Part shown: positions 8,525 to 19,936 of the stretch, piece after piece | How positions within the stretch are numbered: the first letter of the stretch is position 1 | Layout of the letters: each line of letters starts with the position of its first letter | DNA from: an uncultured virus (IMG/VR IMGVR_UViG_3300047322_001016) | Taxonomy: Duplodnaviria; Heunggongvirae; Uroviricota; Caudoviricetes | DNA: 24,519 nucleotides | Strand: one strand, 5' to 3' | IMG/VR virus record: IMGVR_UViG_3300047322_001016 | Translations under genes and position numbers: made by a program | The notes under the pieces: model-generated | Databases searched by the model: none | Told to the model about the DNA's origin: nothing | What the model saw: the letters and a program-made list of their open reading frames with translations, nothing else

Positions 8525-8850
8525 GGCATCTCCTGCCACGGACGCAGGTCGTCGCATTCGGTCAGGTCCTGCCACGGAACGTCGAACACGTCCCGCTCCA
8601 CCACCACGAAGTTCAGGTACGAACCCACATGCACGTTCAGCACAACATCACCTTTCCTGAACCTTTCTCCGTCTTCGAGAATGTCGTGGTACGAGTTGAT
8701 CATCACACGCTGACCCGGAGGGTTCTTCATCCAGTACACCTTCCACGGCGGCAGCCTGCGAGCCACGTCCGCGACGGGAGCATGCTCGGGGTCGGCGAGC
8801 CACTCTTCCCACTCGGCCAGCTCTTCGTCGGTCGGAACGATCGGCTCCAT
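8521..8850 (-). CDS. Hypothetical protein (109 aa)
   Basis: TGATG overlap with the purA-like gene. Confidence 0.7.
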   Translation of the reverse strand: MEPIVPTDEELAEWEEWLADPEHAPVADVARRLPPWKVYWMKNPPGQRVMINSYHDILEDGERFRKGDVVLNVHVGSYLNFVVVERDVFDVPWQDLTECDDLRPWQEMP

Positions 8851-10310
8851 CAGACCTTCACCGGCTTGAGCGTCCTGTAGCTGGACGGCCCTTCCCCGAC
8901 GATCGTGACGGGAACGTTCCCGGCCGCCTGAATCACGTTCACGATGTCATACGGAACCTCACGTGGTTCCTGCGTCAGCTCGATCTCGCCGACGTTCGGG
9001 TAGCAGTCGAACAGACGCCGTGTGACGCACTCCATGTGCGAAATGTCGCCGCCCTTGATCCCTGTGACCTCGCCGCTCTCTCCCGTCGATAGATAGCGGC
9101 CGATGCCGTCGTCGCCGAAGTACTCGTACGACTCCACAACAGGCCACGCATCTCCTGAGAAAGCATCCAGGTGCGTCACCGCGATCGAGTCGGGACGGGT
9201 GCGCCCGACCGCATAGCGGAACGCGACCGCGTCGAACGGTGACCTGCGGAACTCGCCCGCCGTGCCGAACTCGTATTTCGGATGAATCTCGCGCTCGTTG
9301 GGCGCGTTGTGCGGCTCTTCCCACCAAAGCCTGTTCCCCTTCGCCGCGAAGTCGCGACTCTCATACGGACGCCTTCGGTTAGCGTCCGACGGGAACGGCC
9401 CCGCCCCGTGCCTGGTCGTGTACGAACGAACAACCCCGACCGTCTCCACATCAGTGGAGTCCAGGCCGGCGATCATCAGCTCGCTCCGCGCTGGCCCTGG
9501 CGTCACGTCCGACCATGTCGTGTGCGGATGGAACCCGACGGCCTCATCGAGCAGCACACCCTGCGACCCTTCCAGCACAACCGTTCCGGAATTCCGGAGC
9601 AGGTTCGACAGATGCACGTTGTCGACCAGTCTTGTCCTGGCCGCCCACTCCGCGTATCTGTCCACCCACGCTTCCACCGAAGCAGGCTTCTCCCCGTAAA
9701 GCAACAGGCGCGCGGCCTCGAGCCTGTCCGACCAGTTCGCGGTGTCGTCAGGGGGATGCTGATGGTCAACCCACCGATCCTGCTCCACACCGTAAAAAGC
9801 GATCAGCTTTTCCAGCCGCTTCCTGGTGGTCTGCTTGTCGGCGAGCTCGCCTGCGTGCAGCATCAGGCCGCCTTCTCCGATCACACGCCGCGTCTCGCCG
9901 ATCCCTTTCCCTGTGGTGCCGTGGGCCCTGCCGCGACGGTAGTACTCTTTCAGCAGGTTCGCGGCCTCATGGACGGGTGTCGTCACCAAACACCCTTTGT
10001 TGACCGACAGACGATCCCAAACGTCGGTTTCGCCGAGCGTCGCCAAATGGTAGTACTCGTTGAACATGTCGAGCGGGTTGATCATCATGTCCCGCCCCAG
10101 GTAGGTGTCGGCACCCGCGAACGTGCCCGACCCGAACTGCGCGAACGTGTGATGGCGCCCGTCGGGCGCGATCACATTGTGGGCGGCCTGTGCGCCGCCG
10201 CTGAACCTCATCACCGTGTGAGCCCCATGCTCCCGCGTCAGGTGTTCGACGACCTGGCCCTTGCCTTCGTCTCCGTACAGCAACCCTATAACGATGAACG
10301 CCTTGCTCAT
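8850..10310 (-). CDS. purA: Divergent adenylosuccinate synthetase family protein
   Basis: GDEGKG P-loop, RFSGGAQAAH, GTTGKGIG, EGSQGVLLD, YTTRHGAGPFPS, THLD, C-terminal GP. Confidence 0.9.
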   Translation of the reverse strand: MSKAFIVIGLLYGDEGKGQVVEHLTREHGAHTVMRFSGGAQAAHNVIAPDGRHHTFAQFGSGTFAGADTYLGRDMMINPLDMFNEYYHLATLGETDVWDRLSVNKGCLVTTPVHEAANLLKEYYRRGRAHGTTGKGIGETRRVIGEGGLMLHAGELADKQTTRKRLEKLIAFYGVEQDRWVDHQHPPDDTANWSDRLEAARLLLYGEKPASVEAWVDRYAEWAARTRLVDNVHLSNLLRNSGTVVLEGSQGVLLDEAVGFHPHTTWSDVTPGPARSELMIAGLDSTDVETVGVVRSYTTRHGAGPFPSDANRRRPYESRDFAAKGNRLWWEEPHNAPNEREIHPKYEFGTAGEFRRSPFDAVAFRYAVGRTRPDSIAVTHLDAFSGDAWPVVESYEYFGDDGIGRYLSTGESGEVTGIKGGDISHMECVTRRLFDCYPNVGEIELTQEPREVPYDIVNVIQAAGNVPVTIVGEGPSSYRTLKPVKV

Positions 10311-10361: not shown

Positions 10362-11072
10362 TTACTTGAACACGATCGGACTGCCGACAGTCACGACCTT
10401 GAACGCCAACTTCGTGCCGTTGTTGCAGTCCGGCGCCGCACCCGTGCCTCCGTCGGCCATTCCATGGCCGGTGCCGCCATCCTCGCAGAGCCACCGCGTC
10501 CCGTCACCTAGTCCGGCGGGGCCGGGAGGTCCCTGCGCTCCCGTAGCACCAGTGAGTCCGACCGAACCAGCCGGGCCAGGTGCGCCCGTGTCGCCCTTCG
10601 CTCCGCTCGCACCAGTAGCTCCCGTATCACCCTTCGGTCCGCTCGGTCCAGCCGGGCCTGGATCTCCCTTCGGGCCCGCAGGGCCTGTCGTGCCTCCTGC
10701 CGCGGATCCGGCGGGGCCGGGAGGTCCGGCTGGGCCCGCTGGGCCCGCTGGGCCGACCGCACCCTTCGCTCCTGCAGGACCTGCGGGACCTGGTGCACCT
10801 TTGTCTCCCTTCGGGCCCTTCTGGCCTGCGCAATAAACATCAGGCTTGAGCGGCGTCAGCGTCCTACACGGAATCGCAACGCCGACCTTCCGAGTCTCAC
10901 CCGCAAGACACTTCTGGTACGGGATCTCCGCGATCGCGCGGACGACCCCGGTGTGGTTGTCGATGCAGAACGGGCCTGCGAGACGCCGGCCATGGTCTGC
11001 CGAAGCTGGAACCGCGATCACCGCAATCGTTGCGAGCGCGGTGACCACGATCAGCCAGAGATACTTCTTCAT
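10362..11072 (-). CDS. Secreted collagen-like protein
   Basis: Signal peptide MKK-hydrophobic-ASA; ~35 Gly-X-Y triplets in two blocks; Cys-containing flanking domains. Confidence 0.9.
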
Positions 11073-12414: not shown

Positions 12415-12507
12415 GCCTGCCAGACCGCGCCGCGCGTTGCCCTGCCATACCGGGCCCGGCCCCGACTGCCGTGCCATGCCACGCCTTGCCACGCCTAGAC
12501 CTGACGC
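12415..12507 (-). repeat. Mini (NN-GGY)n pentamer array, 17 units in 2 segments; putative guide RNA
   Basis: Plus-strand parse: gcct|gccag accgc gccgc gcgtt gccct gccat accgg gcccg gcccc|gact|gccgt gccat gccac gcctt gccac gccta gacct gacgc. Confidence 0.9.
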
Positions 12508-12510
12508 GCA

Positions 12511-12927
12511 TCAGTTTGCGATGTCGGCTCCAACCATCGCCAGGAACTCTTCGAACTCCTTGTATCGGTCGAACAGCTGCTTCCACTCCCGCTCCATAGA
12601 GATCAGAAGCAGCTTCCGAGTGAAATCGTCCTCGGCGATCCGCTCCACCGGTTCGTAGACGAACCCTTCGTCGGTCTGGATCGCGTGGAACGCCCTGACG
12701 CTTCTCTGCGGCCCGTTCTCGTCTGCTTCCTTGTAGACGATCTTGACGCTCGAGATCAGCTCGTGAGCACGATGTCTGTACCACGCTTCCGCCGCGTCCT
12801 TCACGTTGCGGTCGAACACAAACGCGTGAAGCGGATGGCTCTTCGGACGAGCCGCCTGCACGACCAACTCAGGCGTCAGCTTCCCGTTGGCGGCGTAGAT
12901 CGCCTGAAGCTCTTCCCGTAGGCTCAC
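12511..12927 (-). CDS. Accessory protein coupled to the Cas7-like gene (138 aa)
   Basis: GTGA overlap with the Cas7-like stop; G.LTPE.VV..AR...HPLH..F....AA motif. Confidence 0.85.
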   Translation of the reverse strand: MSLREELQAIYAANGKLTPELVVQAARPKSHPLHAFVFDRNVKDAAEAWYRHRAHELISSVKIVYKEADENGPQRSVRAFHAIQTDEGFVYEPVERIAEDDFTRKLLLISMEREWKQLFDRYKEFEEFLAMVGADIAN

Positions 12928-13595
12928 CCGATGACCTCGACTTCCTTGTCCGGGTCGACGCAGTACGTGCCGAACTCGCCGCCCTTCTCCGGCCTCCACT
13001 CTCCCACTCCGACGCCCATCCCGCCGGCGTCGATGAGAGCAAGAACCGACTCTCGGGTGAGAGCCGAGATCGGGTAGGTGACGGTCAGGCTCGTCTTCCA
13101 CTGCAGGAACTGCGGGCGGTACCGAAGATCGGTGCCGCCACGCGCGACCCTCACGACGTCCTCGCGCATGTTCGGCTCACCGTCGACCGGAACCATCATC
13201 CGCCCGTCGTTCCCGATCTCGCCCAGGAACCACAGGAACGACTTGATCTCCGTCATCTTGACGGCGTGGTAGAACCGGGCACCACCGACAGTGGCGTCCT
13301 TGAACGCGCCGGCGATCATCCCCGGCCGTCCGTCGTTCATCCGATAGAACGCGGCCTCGTACTCTGCTTCCGGGTCCTTCGCCTTCTTCGGCGACTTGCG
13401 GCCCTGCATGTTGTCGAGCATCTGCTTCTTCGCCTTCTCCGAGAACCGATGAACGATCAGCGGCGTGATCCCGAGGATCGGAACGATCAGCGTCTCCCGA
13501 GCGATCCGCTCGATGTGAAGCTCCGCACCGCCCGTGTCGGGTGCGTCCGTCGTTGCGCTCGAACCGTTGGATGCTGCAGCCTTCTTCGTTGCCAT
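12924..13595 (-). CDS. Stand-alone Cas7/RAMP-like protein (223 aa); putative effector of the pentamer-array RNA
   Basis: AAAGGAG RBS before ATG 13595. RAMP-like motifs: GITPLIVH (strand 1), GRPGMIAGAFKDA (cf. IPGSSLKG), thumb hairpin REDVVRV...DLRYRPQF, C-terminal G-rich loop GVGVGEWRPEKGGEFG. Confidence 0.8.
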   Translation of the reverse strand: MATKKAAASNGSSATTDAPDTGGAELHIERIARETLIVPILGITPLIVHRFSEKAKKQMLDNMQGRKSPKKAKDPEAEYEAAFYRMNDGRPGMIAGAFKDATVGGARFYHAVKMTEIKSFLWFLGEIGNDGRMMVPVDGEPNMREDVVRVARGGTDLRYRPQFLQWKTSLTVTYPISALTRESVLALIDAGGMGVGVGEWRPEKGGEFGTYCVDPDKEVEVIG

Positions 13596-13631
13596 GATCT
13601 TTTCTCCTTTGCTTGTGTTACGGGATGAACA

Positions 13632-14626
13632 ACCTTGCCTGCCAAGCCGGGCCGTGCCCAGCCTCGCCCCGCCTAGACACGCCCCGCCTAGCCGTGCCTG
13701 CCTGCCGTGCCACGCCCGACCTAGCCATACCGTGACGCGCCGTGCCGAGCCATGACGGGCCGTGCCTGCCACGCCTGACCATGCCGCGCCATGCCGGACC
13801 CAGACCTGCCGCGCCGAGCCTAGACTGCCGAGCCGTGCCGCGCCAGACCTTGCCGGGCAACGCCGAGCCGAGCCACGCCGTGCCATGACTGCCATGCCGA
13901 GCCACACCGTGCCGATGCCAGGCCCTGACTTGCCGAGCCAAGCCGCGCCGATCCTGCCAAGCCAAGCCGTGCCCGGATCCGCCGAGCCCTGCCGTGCCGA
14001 GCCATACCGAGACCCGCCTAGCCGGGACTGCCAGGCCATGCCATACCGTGCCCGGACGCGCCAAGCCCCGCCCCGCCACGCCTGCCGAGCCCTGCCACGC
14101 CCAGCCGTGCCAAGCCAAGTCTGGCCGTGCCCTGCCGAGACGGGCCGTGACGCGCCGCGCCTTGCCTGCCATGCCGAGCCATGCCGTGACCTGCCCCGAC
14201 ACACCGGGCCAAGCCTGCCTTGCCGTGCCCTACCTGGCCCCGCCACGCCTAACCTCTTCCCGCCATGCCTGGCCTCGCCTGCCCAGCCGCGCCAAGCCGT
14301 GCCGCGCCCTGCCATGTCGAGACGAGCCTTGCCTTGCCTGCCACGCCCTGTCACGCCGAGCCCTGCCCGACCAAGTTCTGCCATGCCGCGCGTTGCCATG
14401 CCTGTCTTGCCACGCCGTGCCTGGCCGCACCGTGCCGCGCCTAGCCACACCAGCCGTGCCATGCCCCAACTCGCCGGGCCATGCCTGCCTTGCCTGGCCG
14501 TGCCATGCCGTGCCCGACCGCGCCTGGACACGCCGCGCCCAGTCTCGCCCAGCCACGCCGAGCCGCGCCTTGCCTGCCGGGCCACGCCGGGACTCGCCCG
14601 GCCAGACCTTGCCCCGCCATGCCACG
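13632..14626 (-). repeat. Large (NN-GGY)n pentamer array, ~184 units in 16 segments; putative multi-guide non-coding RNA
   Basis: Strict 5-nt periodicity gccNN (variants acc, gac, gtc) on the plus strand, punctuated by 4-nt units (mostly gcct) every 6-17 pentamers. Confidence 0.95.
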
Positions 14627-15706
14627 CTACCTGTCTCCAGGCATTTTGAACTCTCGAAACTTCCGTCGTCCCCAAAGCCGTTCGATTAGATCGTCAAAAG
14701 ACCGTAGTGCGCTGATTGTGTCACTGGGACGCATCGATGCTTGGGGGATTACGCAGGCTCGAAAATGAGCCCTGATTGCCCGAGGGATAGGATCTCTCAA
14801 TTTCCCGAGCACGGGGTCGCCGCCCAACACTCGCACCATGCTTTTCGCCGCGATGAAGATGTCCGTCGCCGGCGTAGACGGCTGCTTCTCAAGGACTTCG
14901 TCGGGATACCAGTCGCGGTACCTGGGGATGATCGCGACCGGCTTCGTGCCGGCCTCGGCGGAGTAGCACCAGTCGATCAGCACCACGCCGTGTTCGGGCG
15001 GCAGGATCATGATGTTGTCGGGGAACGGCGCATGATGAACGATGCCGGCGTCGTGTGCGAGCGACAGCGCGGTGAGTATGCGCCGCCACATCCACGCCAT
15101 GTCTTTCGCGTCGATGCCGTTCGGGTAGGCCCTCGCCACGTCGGCGAGCGTCACCCACTGGCCGCTGTCCCCGGGCCTGTTGGCCGGCAACGCGTCGAAC
15201 ACGTTGGCTTGCCTTTCGACTCTGCTCGAGTCCTTCACCCTGAGTGCGTCAGTCAGCCGCGGCAGGAACACATGCTTGCTCTCATGGGCTTCGCGGCGGA
15301 TCTTCTTGATCGCCGTCACTTCGCGTCGCATCAGGTCGCCGTCCCTGGGTGACCTGGCGATCTTGATGATGCCGCCGTCGCTCGAGTAGATGTCGGCGAT
15401 GTCGCCCCGCTCGAGCTTGGCGCCGAGCAGATACTTCTTCTTCTTCGACGTCACCGTCAAACCAGCGAGACCAGGATCGTCCCATGTTCCGTTGTCGAAC
15501 AGCTCACGGGCGATCCGCCACATCGCGCTCAACTGGATGAACTGTTCCGTCGCCGCCGCGACCTGCTCGGATGTGGCTTCCTTCGGGAGTCGGTCGGGGT
15601 GGCTTTCGCGGACGAGTTCGCGGTAGATGTGTTGTGCTTCCTCGAACGTGGCGTTCTCGCCGCCGAACATGTCCTGCGGCCGCGCGGCTTTCGCGACTGC
15701 GCTCAC
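14627..15706 (-). CDS. J-domain (HPD) plus Ser/Thr protein kinase-like fusion
   Basis: YRELVRESHPDR; GDIADIY, IIKIAR, L..E, IVHHAPFPDN, LIDWCYS, YPDE, TDIF. Confidence 0.85.
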   Translation of the reverse strand: MSAVAKAARPQDMFGGENATFEEAQHIYRELVRESHPDRLPKEATSEQVAAATEQFIQLSAMWRIARELFDNGTWDDPGLAGLTVTSKKKKYLLGAKLERGDIADIYSSDGGIIKIARSPRDGDLMRREVTAIKKIRREAHESKHVFLPRLTDALRVKDSSRVERQANVFDALPANRPGDSGQWVTLADVARAYPNGIDAKDMAWMWRRILTALSLAHDAGIVHHAPFPDNIMILPPEHGVVLIDWCYSAEAGTKPVAIIPRYRDWYPDEVLEKQPSTPATDIFIAAKSMVRVLGGDPVLGKLRDPIPRAIRAHFRACVIPQASMRPSDTISALRSFDDLIERLWGRRKFREFKMPGDR

Positions 15707-15903
15707 GATCCACTCCGGAATTCCGGAGAGACGACCTTCTCTAGTGTGAGAACGATGATGTCGGGTCGCCCTCCGACCACCTGAACGTCAGCCACGGTGA
15801 ATTGTGTGCCGTCCGCGATGACGGCGACCACGGGAAGGATTTCTCCTTCTTCGATCTCCATCAGTTGGTCGACGAGATCTCCGCCGTCCATTACTGCTCC
15901 CAT
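15703..15903 (-). CDS. Hypothetical protein (66 aa)
   Basis: Fills the gap between rtcB and the kinase; GTGA-coupled to the kinase. Confidence 0.6.
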   Translation of the reverse strand: MGAVMDGGDLVDQLMEIEEGEILPVVAVIADGTQFTVADVQVVGGRPDIIVLTLEKVVSPEFRSGS

Positions 15904-15905
15904 CG

Positions 15906-17246
15906 TCAGTCCTTCCACGGGTCATGGACGTCGGCTCCTGCCATCACGACGCCGACGGGACGCAGCATGTGCACGACCTCGATGTTCGAGTGCTGCCCGA
16001 GCACCGTCGCCAAATCCTTGTAGGCGGCTGGTGCTTCGTCGGCCGCGGCGCCGACGACGATGATGCCGCGCTCCCGCAGCTCCTGCTTCACCGTCGGCCA
16101 GTCGATCAGCCCTTCGCTGACCTTCTCTTCCGTCCAGAACTTCCGCAGCACGGTGCCGTGCTCGGGGCAGTAGTCGCCGTCTTTGTGTTCGCGCGCGGGC
16201 TGCGTGTAGTGGCAGTTCCGTTCGCCGCACCCGTACATCTTGCGCTTCTTCACCTTCCCTGCCGCCTTGGTGCGTGACATGGCGCGTCCTGCTCCGTGCG
16301 GCGCCGAGCCGATCGCCCCGATGTCATCTACTGCTGTCGCGGGTGGCGGCAGCGGCTGACCTGTCCATCCGCCGCCGATCTTGCCGCGAACGATGACCGA
16401 CATGTCGCCCATCGAGCCGCCGATGAACGCAGGATCACGCGTGAGCGGCGTCGCGCCTTTCCGCACGACAACCTTGCCGTTCTCGAGCCACGCGTAGTTG
16501 TGATGGTTGTGGACGCTCGACACCGGCAACGCACCCAGGATGTCGAGGACCTGGCTCATCACGTAGTCGCGTCCCGCATACGCGTATGCGCCGGCGAGCT
16601 CCATGCACTCCCAGTAGAACGCGCCGATCTCGCTGTCGAGGTTGAACACGGTCGGCTCTTCCCTGTCCTGGGCGCCGTCGCCGAACGCACGGTTCGCCGC
16701 GAGGTTCAGGAAGCCTTTCGCGATCGTGTGTCCGAACCCGCGGGAGCCGAAGTGGTTCGCGACCCACAGCCACCCGTTTTCGTCGACGAGAAGGTCGACG
16801 TAGTGGTTCCCGGCGCCGACGGTGCCGAGCTGCCGTTCGGCTTTCTGCTTCAGGCCTGGCGAGCGCTTCTCGATGTCGGGCCACAGGTGGCTGTCGAACA
16901 AAGGATGGTCGACTTTCTCTTGTTCGTTGGAGCGGCCCATTCCGAACGAGATCCGCTCGTTGATCTCGGCCAGTAGCGGCTGGACTTCGCGTTCCACGTC
17001 GGCGAACCGCAGGTTCGTCTTCACGGCCTTGTTGCCGCAGCCGATGTCGTAGCCGACACCAGACGGCGACACGGCGTTGTCGTAAGCGACGACGCCGCCG
17101 ATCGGCATCGAATACCCGACGTGCCCGTCGGCGCACAGAGCGGCCGCCACAGCCCGTTCGTCCGCGGCGACCATGTTGAGCTGGTCGATCGTCTTCTGGT
17201 CGTGATCACCGAAGACCGTGACCGGCTTCGTTGCAGTGTCAGTCAT
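15906..17246 (-). CDS. rtcB: RtcB family RNA ligase (3'-P/2',3'-cyclic-P to 5'-OH)
   Basis: D.H.GY..PIGG, GYDIGCG, QLGT.G.GNHY, H.GSRGFG, HNY, RKGATP, GSMG, SAPHGAGRAMSR, DEAPAAYK; ATG at 17246. Confidence 0.95.
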   Translation of the reverse strand: MTDTATKPVTVFGDHDQKTIDQLNMVAADERAVAAALCADGHVGYSMPIGGVVAYDNAVSPSGVGYDIGCGNKAVKTNLRFADVEREVQPLLAEINERISFGMGRSNEQEKVDHPLFDSHLWPDIEKRSPGLKQKAERQLGTVGAGNHYVDLLVDENGWLWVANHFGSRGFGHTIAKGFLNLAANRAFGDGAQDREEPTVFNLDSEIGAFYWECMELAGAYAYAGRDYVMSQVLDILGALPVSSVHNHHNYAWLENGKVVVRKGATPLTRDPAFIGGSMGDMSVIVRGKIGGGWTGQPLPPPATAVDDIGAIGSAPHGAGRAMSRTKAAGKVKKRKMYGCGERNCHYTQPAREHKDGDYCPEHGTVLRKFWTEEKVSEGLIDWPTVKQELRERGIIVVGAAADEAPAAYKDLATVLGQHSNIEVVHMLRPVGVVMAGADVHDPWKD

Positions 17247-17437
17247 CCTCTCCCTTTCTTTGTTCGTTCTTCGTGGATCACGTCGCACCGCTCAGCGAGC
17301 ACAGTCGCGGCCGCCCCGAGTTGGACGAGTTCGGCGGGCAGGAAGTGGACGCGGAGGTATTCGTCGACGGCGTAGGCGCCTGTGTCGGCTTCGGCGTCTT
17401 CTGCGGCGATCAGCAGCGCTTCTGTTTCTGTGCTCAT
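17243..17437 (-). CDS. Hypothetical protein (64 aa)
   Basis: AGGAGG RBS; ATGA-coupled to rtcB. Confidence 0.65.
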   Translation of the reverse strand: MSTETEALLIAAEDAEADTGAYAVDEYLRVHFLPAELVQLGAAATVLAERCDVIHEERTKKGRG

Positions 17438-18183: not shown

Positions 18184-18392
18184 GACGCGACCGGCCTGTC
18201 GTAGCCGTCGACGAGGATCGGACGCATGTGGCGTTCTTCCATCATGATCGCCGCGACCATCGCCGCTTCCCGAAGCTCGGTGGGCGTGAACGTGTTCCCG
18301 TCGGCGTGTGCCTGTTCCGCCAGCCGGTAGATCGTGTCGACAAGCATCCTGAACAGCGGATCCTGCCTGTACCGATCCCTTGAGCTCATCAT
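18180..18392 (-). CDS. Hypothetical protein (70 aa)
   Basis: DRY..DP.FR.LVD...TPTELREAA; ATGA-coupled. Confidence 0.7.
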   Translation of the reverse strand: MMSSRDRYRQDPLFRMLVDTIYRLAEQAHADGNTFTPTELREAAMVAAIMMEERHMRPILVDGYDRPVAS

Positions 18393-19936
18393 GATTCGCT
18401 TTCCGGCTTGAACTCGGGCACTTCGACGGCTGCCCCTTCGAACATCTCCGCGAACGCCTGTTTGATGCTCTCGGCCGACAGTTCGGGCTCCGCCATGAAC
18501 AGCTCGGTCAGGCGCCCCGCTGCGTTCGCTGCCCTCGTCTGCGCTTCCGTTTTCGCGGGTTCTTCCAGCTTGCGGTAGTCGCCGTCGCCGCCGTAGACGA
18601 ACGCGATCGCCTGCCGCATGATCGACTTCCAGTCGAGCGACGGGTCGACCTCGTCCAGCACTTCGCTGATCCCTTTCCACCCTGACTTCTTCTCGGGTGC
18701 GTCGTCGCGCCGCATCGTGGCAGGGTCGAAAGCATCAACCGGTTCGCCGTCTTCTGGTTCGTCTCCGAACGGAATGTCTTCAGCGGGAGTCTGCCCCGCG
18801 GGAGCGGCGGCGTCCTCGGGTTCGACCAGTTCCGCTTCCACGACCTCGTCGACTTCGACCTTCGCTTCGGCTTCGCCCTCCGGAATTCCGGAGTCGAACG
18901 GCGTCCCGGGCCCTTCCACCGCGACACCGCCGAACGCCCACGCAAACATCTTTTTGTAGTCGTCGGCCGAAGGCGGCGGGAAGTCACCAGCCGAGAACAG
19001 CTCGTCGCGGATCCGGGTGAGCACGTTCGCGATCCTTCTTCCGGCCTCGCTGCCCTTGTCGTCGGGAAGCTCCTTCACGGGGCTGCCGTACAGCTTCTGC
19101 ACGGCCTCTGAGATCCAGTCGGGCAAGGTCGGGTCGAGCTCGAGCGCGAGCTTCCCGATCTCTCTCCACCCGGACGGAGCGTCTTTCGCGAGCGAGTTGC
19201 CCGGGTCGAACCGCGGGTCGCGCCAGTTCGTCAGCTTCCCGACGGGCGTTTCCGTTCCCGGCGTGTCGTAGCCGGAGCCGCCGTAGCCGCCTTCGTCCCA
19301 GTCCTGCATCTCTTCGGCTGCGTACACCATCCCGCCGACCATGTCGGAACCCAGGCGGCGACACAGACGCCCGACGCACCTGGCCCACAGCATGTCCTGC
19401 CGGTACTTCTCCCAGTTCGCTTTCGTGTTCAGGCCGGCGTCGATCGCGTCCTCGATCGTCCACTCGACCTCGGCCTCTTCGCCGGTGTCGGAGCGGCGCG
19501 CGTGGATGAACGCCCGCTCCTTCGTCGACCCGGACTTCAGGATCACGAGGCCGCCGCGGCGCATCTGCGCCAGCATCTCTTCCGCCGCCAACGACGGCTT
19601 CCCGTCGATGATGTGGACCTTCTGCAAAGCCTGCATCGGCCCCAGGCCGATCTCGCGGCCGTACAGGATCCCCGCCACCACGGCCTCCGGGTTGCCGCGG
19701 TAGGCCTTCGGCACGAACGTCGTGTTCGCGATCGTGCGGGCCATCGTCATCGTCGCTTCCCACTCGCCCGGCGACGGCAACACCGCCGCCGGCGGCTGCG
19801 GCGCTTCGCGTTCCTCGCGGATCGCGACGGCCTGAGACTCGATCTGTTCGGGAAGCGACACTTCCGTCCCGGGTGTTTTCTCTTCCTCGGCTGTGATTTC
19901 GACGGCGTCTCCGTCGACCACGTCTGTTTCGCTCAT
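18389..19936 (-). CDS. recT: RecT/Redbeta-like single-strand annealing protein with duplicated C-terminal domain
   Basis: FVPKAYRG.P...ILYGREIGL.PMQAL..+H+IDGKP and W.KY...ML.AR...R...D..GG.Y..EEM motifs. Confidence 0.8.
   Translation of the reverse strand: MSETDVVDGDAVEITAEEEKTPGTEVSLPEQIESQAVAIREEREAPQPPAAVLPSPGEWEATMTMARTIANTTFVPKAYRGNPEAVVAGILYGREIGLGPMQALQKVHIIDGKPSLAAEEMLAQMRRGGLVILKSGSTKERAFIHARRSDTGEEAEVEWTIEDAIDAGLNTKANWEKYRQDMLWARCVGRLCRRLGSDMVGGMVYAAEEMQDWDEGGYGGSGYDTPGTETPVGKLTNWRDPRFDPGNSLAKDAPSGWREIGKLALELDPTLPDWISEAVQKLYGSPVKELPDDKGSEAGRRIANVLTRIRDELFSAGDFPPPSADDYKKMFAWAFGGVAVEGPGTPFDSGIPEGEAEAKVEVDEVVEAELVEPEDAAAPAGQTPAEDIPFGDEPEDGEPVDAFDPATMRRDDAPEKKSGWKGISEVLDEVDPSLDWKSIMRQAIAFVYGGDGDYRKLEEPAKTEAQTRAANAAGRLTELFMAEPELSAESIKQAFAEMFEGAAVEVPEFKPESES

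Follow-up and report, generated by a model that had tools for sequence, protein, structure and literature searches.

The DNA analysed here, which we call the window, is the whole 24,519-nt stretch of an uncultured virus assigned to the Caudoviricetes (IMG/VR record IMGVR_UViG_3300047322_001016). It is phage DNA whose PurZ-like, collagen-like tail fibre, RtcB, kinase-like and RecT-like genes all lie on the minus strand (Table 1). On this strand the window also carries two arrays of GGY-NN pentamers, a gene for a 223-aa protein, named vipr on the evidence given below, and a gene for a 138-aa protein. Array 1 begins 3 nt past the stop of the kinase-like gene that lies upstream, so it may be transcribed by read-through, and it ends 37 nt ahead of the ribosome-binding site and ATG of vipr. 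The GTG start of the 138-aa gene overlaps the vipr stop codon (GTGA), and this gene family follows vipr in 67 of 85 related loci. A structural model of the 138-aa protein (pLDDT 95) bears a weak resemblance to winged-helix domains (Z 5-6); Foldseek returned no match for it at E<=1e-3, and a PDB sequence search with its family gave E about 1 at best. Pfam gave no match for Vipr or for the 138-aa gene.

Several of the remaining genes deserve mention in their own right. The 486-aa adenylosuccinate-synthetase homologue has the PurZ family phrog_1211 as its best PHROG (E 5e-64) and matches Pfam Adenylsucc_synt (E 1.6e-54); to judge from this homology, 2-aminoadenine may take the place of adenine in the phage. 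The kinase-like gene (phrog_3043, with a weak Pkinase match) stands beside an RtcB RNA ligase gene (Pfam E 2e-59). The RecT-like annealing protein is unusually long at 515 aa, and the tail fibre gene contains collagen repeats.

Table 1. Positions in the window of the two arrays, of their parts and of the surrounding genes.
Feature	Position	Strand	Remarks
PurZ-like gene	8850..10310	-	
Collagen-repeat tail fibre gene	10362..11072	-	
Putative vrRNA array 2	12417..12495	-	16 units; one GGCA at 12467-12470; end GGCA-GGC-TTAGT
Candidate accessory (vap-like) gene	12511..12927	-	138 aa; phrog_15946
vipr gene	12924..13595	-	223 aa + stop; phrog_4652; predicted Cas7/Csm3-like RAMP fold
Ribosome-binding site AAAGGAG	13604..13610	-	8 nt 5' of the vipr ATG; read from the sequence
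Putative vrRNA array 1	13639..14623	-	200 units by dynamic-programming parse; chain score 252
Four-base unit starts in array 1, first part	13640, 13699, 13703, 13767, 13826, 13890, 13955, 14029, 14083		+ strand numbering
Four-base unit starts in array 1, rest	14167, 14216, 14280, 14339, 14403, 14452, 14486, 14575		+ strand numbering
Putative guide block g14	13826..13889	-	12 full units + GGCA; target motif DVARFGTDETV[IM]
6-nt unit GGCATC	13914..13919	-	the only one in array 1; +1 slip within a block
Kinase-like gene and RtcB gene	14627..17288	-	
RecT-like gene	18389..19936	-	

Anatomy of the pentamer arrays

To delimit the arrays, the minus strand was parsed into chains of units, with 5-nt steps free and 4- or 6-nt steps penalised. 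Across the 24.5-kb window this parse finds two chains only, which are arrays 1 and 2, and the best chain score in 200 shuffles of the region was 11 against the value observed for array 1. Array 1 is composed of 183 GGY-NN units and one unit of 6 nt, together with 16 internal units of 4 nt and a GGCA-GGC at its end. The entropies at the successive positions of the 183 five-base units are 0.18, 0.68, 0.53, 1.93 and 1.93 bits; GGC is thus fixed while NN is free. The first three bases of the array 1 pentamers are GGC in 155 cases, GTC in 17 and GGT in 16. Among its 17 four-base units are 15 GGCA, one GGCT and one GACA, and a G comes directly after each. These units divide array 1 into about 17 putative guide blocks, with lengths of 9, 17, 6, 9, 12, 11, 12, 9, 16, 10, 14, 12, 12, 11, 12 and 11 full units.

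A preliminary description of this DNA, made from its letters alone, had already recognised the punctuation of array 1, and most of its detail holds. All 17 four-base units that it listed are present, each lying exactly 3 nt above the position it gave, which is a difference of register only. Fifteen of its 16 block lengths agree with ours, and the last block measures 9 units rather than 10. Its list of phase slips was right for every 4-nt unit and missed the 6-nt unit. It had also described both arrays as ending with a separator plus one degenerate unit, and this is indeed their form: GGCA-GGC followed by a degenerate unit, a terminus common to many related arrays as well. Against the possibility it raised that the 4-nt units are deletion errors stand Logan contigs of four further rhizosphere samples; the pieces listed match parts of array 1 with no differing letters, gaps, insertions or deletions (contig joints with sides of <30 nt were taken as cross-matches from other arrays and left out). 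The four-base units are therefore not the error of one assembly, the comparison being one of contigs and not of raw reads.

Within the array region, a search of Rfam gave 0 matches at E<=1, hammerhead ribozymes included, a promoter scan gave 0 sigma-70-like sites, and terminator-like sites were no more frequent than in shuffles. Two known arrangements were considered for the locus and rejected. Membership in CRISPR-Cas was set aside since the window contains no repeat-spacer array, its periodicities being 5 nt and multiples of it only, and since Cas-family Pfam matches number 0 among the 27 window ORFs scanned; cas adaptation genes were likewise not found. A type II layout like that of Escherichia phage SUSP1 was set aside since the tracts lack the conserved 3' tail with pseudoknot that follows the studied type II vrRNAs, and the blocks here abut directly.

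The array can also be read as low-complexity protein-coding sequence. A 583-aa ORF (12924-14675, minus strand) crosses it into vipr, and in GenBank such arrays are either left blank or annotated as hypothetical proteins; Donkeykong gp48, BobaPhett gp51 and Pipp gp43 are annotated over them (L001:2978-3364, L002:2961-3230 and L093:753-917 in our set of loci). We find a coding role barely conceivable, since conservation follows a period of 5 nt and not 3, the array includes 17 frame-shifting units, 6% of unit-order shuffles also keep a frame fully open, and vipr has its own ribosome-binding site and an ATG at 13595. The ORFs annotated over pentamer arrays are probably spurious.

Identity of the 223-aa protein

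At E<=1e-3 the 223-aa protein finds 3298 homologues; a functional name appears in none of the 120 matches listed. We built an AlphaFold2 (AF2) model of it from 40 homologues (pLDDT 78, pTM 0.73). Foldseek returned 66 PDB matches to this model at E<=1e-3, with 6xn3_F at the top (9e-6), and all the matches listed are chains of CRISPR effector complexes, mostly of type III Csm. A VIA search with the same model reached Z 10.2, with an rmsd of 3.8 A over 149 residues, against 9g9a_D, a chain of a Csm complex. The idea of a TRAP-like ring protein that binds triplets at 5-nt spacing was dropped because the neighbouring gene encodes a RAMP protein.

A small stand-alone protein of the RAMP fold, which in Vipr comprises an RRM core, a G-loop and a thumb, beside pentamer repeats recalls VIPR, an RNA-guided silencer of DNA that is related to CRISPR and was first reported in 2026 (bioRxiv 10.64898/2026.04.26.720920). 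As set out in that preprint, VIPR consists of a roughly 20-kDa Vipr protein and of vrRNAs with 9-16 repeats of YNNGG; double-stranded DNA is recognised by pairing with the NN bases, one base being skipped per unit, usually a wobble position, and the systems silence rival mobile elements. In an hhalign comparison, the profile of the window family aligned with the Vipr of phage SUSP1 at a probability of 95.8% (E 7e-9), over the C-terminal 54 columns only, the N-terminal part being unaligned. The alignment pairs R160, E199, W200 and R201 of the window protein with SUSP1 R138, D177, W178 and R179, and these four window residues are invariant across the 40 homologues. According to the cryo-EM preprint (bioRxiv 10.64898/2026.04.26.720927), the SUSP1 residues contact the two guanines and the pyrimidine of GGY. 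Judged by profile alignment and modelled fold, the neighbouring 223-aa protein is Vipr.

The SUSP1 locus itself is a useful point of comparison. Our array detector finds four vrRNAs around its 195-aa gene. The two phages share a homologous Vipr with conserved GGY-contact residues, about 10-15 pentamers per guide, and the order array, vipr, small gene, array. SUSP1 differs in having four separate GGT-NN vrRNAs with spacers between them, each followed by a 3' tail that forms a pseudoknot according to the preprints, whereas the window has GGC-NN units, one-base slips only, no spacer and no tail. With Class 1 CRISPR-Cas (type III Csm3, type I Cas7) the likeness includes the RAMP fold and, as the VIPR preprint describes it, a filament on the guide RNA in which bases are periodically excluded from pairing (10.64898/2026.04.26.720920). 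Class 1 systems use a repeat-spacer array and a period of 6 nt with one hidden base, whereas the window has a period of 5 with three hidden.

Blocks in related phages and a putative target

We collected 85 loci encoding Vipr relatives, comprising 83 from IMG/VR together with Mycobacterium phage Donkeykong and Gordonia phage Pipp; some of these duplicate one contig. GGY-NN arrays are present in 82 of the 85; of the three that lack one, a single locus is cut off where the gene ends. Among the distinct arrays, 91 of 92 are co-oriented with vipr, 19 lying upstream of it and 73 downstream. This orientation bears on whether the array acts as DNA, in the form of 5-bp protein-binding iterons or a G-quadruplex-prone tract serving replication, partition or regulation. 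A GG every 5 nt on one strand could, by inference from the sequence, form two-tetrad quadruplexes, and the want of a promoter-like site in the array region would suit such a role. We nevertheless hold a DNA-level function to be highly improbable, because an almost invariable placement on the strand of the RAMP-fold gene points to a role of the transcript, and because the homologous SUSP1 protein is reported by the preprints to bind such repeats as RNA.

Across the family, 576 of 808 non-5-nt units are GGCA. Between one GGCA and the next we count 388 blocks; their median length is 11 units, most have 9-13, and blocks of only 1-6 units also occur. The one-base shortening recurs across clades, and its letter varies between some loci. 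That slippage produced such arrays as a neutral, microsatellite-like expansion, in which the 4-nt units would be indels arisen at random, is extremely improbable. Tandem Repeats Finder (TRF) does report the arrays of the window as just imperfect repeats of period 5, 10 or 15. Yet ordinary slippage would be expected to homogenise the NN positions, as the preliminary description had argued, and these remain at 1.93 bits each while GGC stays fixed; moreover, most off-length units are identical and regularly spaced, and the same type of array recurs beside one gene in nearly all of the loci.

Some features of the junctions vary from locus to locus. The junction unit is GGCA in most loci, GGCC in L060, L063 and L067, and GGCT in L026; after a GGCC junction comes mostly GTC in L063 and L067, and GGC in L060. 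In the unit that follows a GGCA junction (591 junctions of the window and related loci) the first variable position is a purine in 82% of cases, versus about 60% in other units, and across units in general this position is poor in C. The longest array by far belongs to L025 (L025:3194-5602, plus strand), where 496 units span 2.4 kb and the array extends at least to the edge of the locus; it has many short blocks and varied junction letters.

The arrays of related phages were compared, as the preliminary description had proposed. Six Mycobacterium F1 phages whose flanks are near-identical have arrays that vary by entire GGCA-bounded blocks. Two blocks of Donkeykong, of 12 and 11 units, are missing from Brocalys and are flanked by blocks common to both, and Mattes, Saal and BobaPhett carry other blocks at the site of these extra ones.

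To search for targets, nine window blocks were written as NN-x-NN patterns with a 1-nt skip and scanned for exact matches in public collections. An exact target was found for one of the nine blocks tried. This block, g14, matches one contig in viral_contigs (IMG/VR) and one unrelated contig in metagenome_contigs (JGI), and both targets fall at the same motif of genes that encode the large subunit of terminase (phrog_2; E 2e-42 and E 3e-38). In each, 24 of 24 NN bases match, in frame, and the skipped base is the wobble position; the skipped bases themselves differ between the two targets at 6 of 11 positions. The match stops at both separators, and 3' of it the target is still conserved in both contigs while the array departs from it. 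We count the two matches as one event because one conserved protein motif is common to both. By an estimate from assumed collection sizes, the chance expectation for 24 specified bases is well under 0.01 per scan.

The other eight blocks gave no exact 1-nt-skip match in the collection against which each was scanned: viral_contigs for g5, g16, g6, g9 (first 12 units) and g15, metagenome_contigs for g11, and genome_contigs for g7 and g18 (11 units). These eight blank scans fit a low background, as a rough guide only, all the patterns being those of real blocks. Against the two terminase loci, the best of the other window guides matched 20 of 34 NN bases (59%), and none reached 80%. NN composition showed no significant correlation with codon positions 1-2 (r 0.19), and the controls were equally flat. 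In a local contest of skip rules, with 438 guides set against 0.41 Mb, near-matches numbered 28 for the 1-nt skip versus 3, 1 and 1; this excess is not independent support, because one guide, in locus L014, accounts for 24 of the 28. This guide (L014:3113-3157, plus strand), the first block after vipr, matches with a 1-nt skip the conserved vipr region coding for LSLIDAGG in 24 other loci, with 1-2 mismatches in 18 of them, and the vipr gene of its own locus is unmatched at that level. On this sequence pattern it resembles the anti-VIPR guides that the preprints describe for SUSP1 relatives.

A probable staggered guide layout and the one-base slip

Taken together, we consider it probable that array 1 is a guide-RNA array of a phage-encoded VIPR system with a tail-less 'staggered' layout, in which the GGCA-bounded blocks would be the guides; this reading draws on the sequence, on the protein model and on analogy with studied VIPR systems. 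The VIPR preprint (10.64898/2026.04.26.720920) lists 'staggered arrays with overlapping vrRNAs', and according to the legend of its fig. S18 the individual vrRNAs derive from positions that overlap by 1 nt. The window locus matches these arrays because the junction of GGCA with the G after it corresponds to the published 1-nt overlap. The published systems and the window have in common a small stand-alone RAMP protein beside same-strand GGY-NN pentamer arrays, adjoining guides that overlap by 1 nt with neither tail nor ribozyme, and a phage-borne setting; the window also has, in its 138-aa gene, a candidate for the small accessory genes of such systems (vap1-6). This copy differs from them in its about 17+2 putative guides and in residing in a phage with a PurZ homologue. 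The window blocks of 6-17 units fit the published guide length of 9-16 repeats if blocks are guides. The locus would thus be a further example of published VIPR, and what the preliminary description proposed amounts in essence to the 'staggered VIPR array' of the literature. In the main texts of three VIPR preprints no word starts with 'Mycobacter', and the sections consulted make no mention of this clade.

By analogy with the published type II mechanism, the minus strand would be transcribed and one Vipr protomer would take up each pentamer, burying GGC and leaving both variable bases exposed. The successive NN bases would then pair with double-stranded target DNA, skipping every third base, usually a wobble position, and this pairing would silence the genes of competing phages. 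We infer further that a 4-nt unit, mostly GGCA and then G, shifts the register by one base; a filament would be out of phase across the slip, so that each GGCA-bounded block of about 9-17 units would constitute one guide. The blocks could be either cut apart or left joined.

The four-base units most likely mark the end of one guide and the start of the next. That the blocks are guides is supported by the g14 match, by the whole-block differences between phages and by the block lengths, and in this respect the proposal of the preliminary description that separators delimit individual guides stands, now in the context of a VIPR locus. Its comparison of the separators to CRISPR repeats is an analogy only, since what separates the blocks is a shift of phase by one base, where CRISPR has a repeat handle. 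It is conceivable that the array belongs to VIPR and that its 4-nt units are nevertheless not processing sites, the transcript remaining whole as a string of filaments or having its ends set elsewhere, and the slips only breaking or tolerating the filament register. No ribozyme or known RNA family was found in the region with Rfam, some blocks are as short as 1-6 units, and the sRNA-seq confirmation in the preprint is given for the ribozyme-interspersed and single-vrRNA layouts and leaves out staggered arrays (10.64898/2026.04.26.720920), all of which would accord with an uncut transcript. We judge it unlikely, because both ends of the g14 match coincide exactly with junctions, phages differ from one another by entire blocks, block length is tight around 11 units, and the junction plus GGC at the end of arrays suggests that each guide needs a 3' junction.

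Returning to the staggered guide array, a more specific proposal is that the one-base slip alone punctuates it, with no hairpin handle, ribozyme or pseudoknot, by stopping Vipr polymerisation and so setting both the filament length and the RNA ends. We offer this tentatively, as a possibility that is somewhat less likely than not. If the slip alone punctuates the array, a transcript of ~1 kb would be split into about 17 guide complexes, and guide RNAs would be measured and cut by register, which would be experimentally new for any system.

VIPR is a newly described form of RNA-guided DNA recognition, proposed to be a relative of the backbone proteins of CRISPR, and the experiments that the preprints report concern tailed, well-separated guides. 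The window locus and the large clade to which it belongs pack many putative guides head to tail, with one-base slips between them. The g14 guide would aim, within a conserved catalytic motif, at codon positions 1 and 2, which synonymous changes cannot alter. Cultivable phages of Mycobacterium and Gordonia belong to this clade, actinophages with the same layout, and phages of Mycobacterium smegmatis would make an easy test system. If it is true that the slip alone defines the guides, no multiplexed guide format known would be more compact than these arrays.
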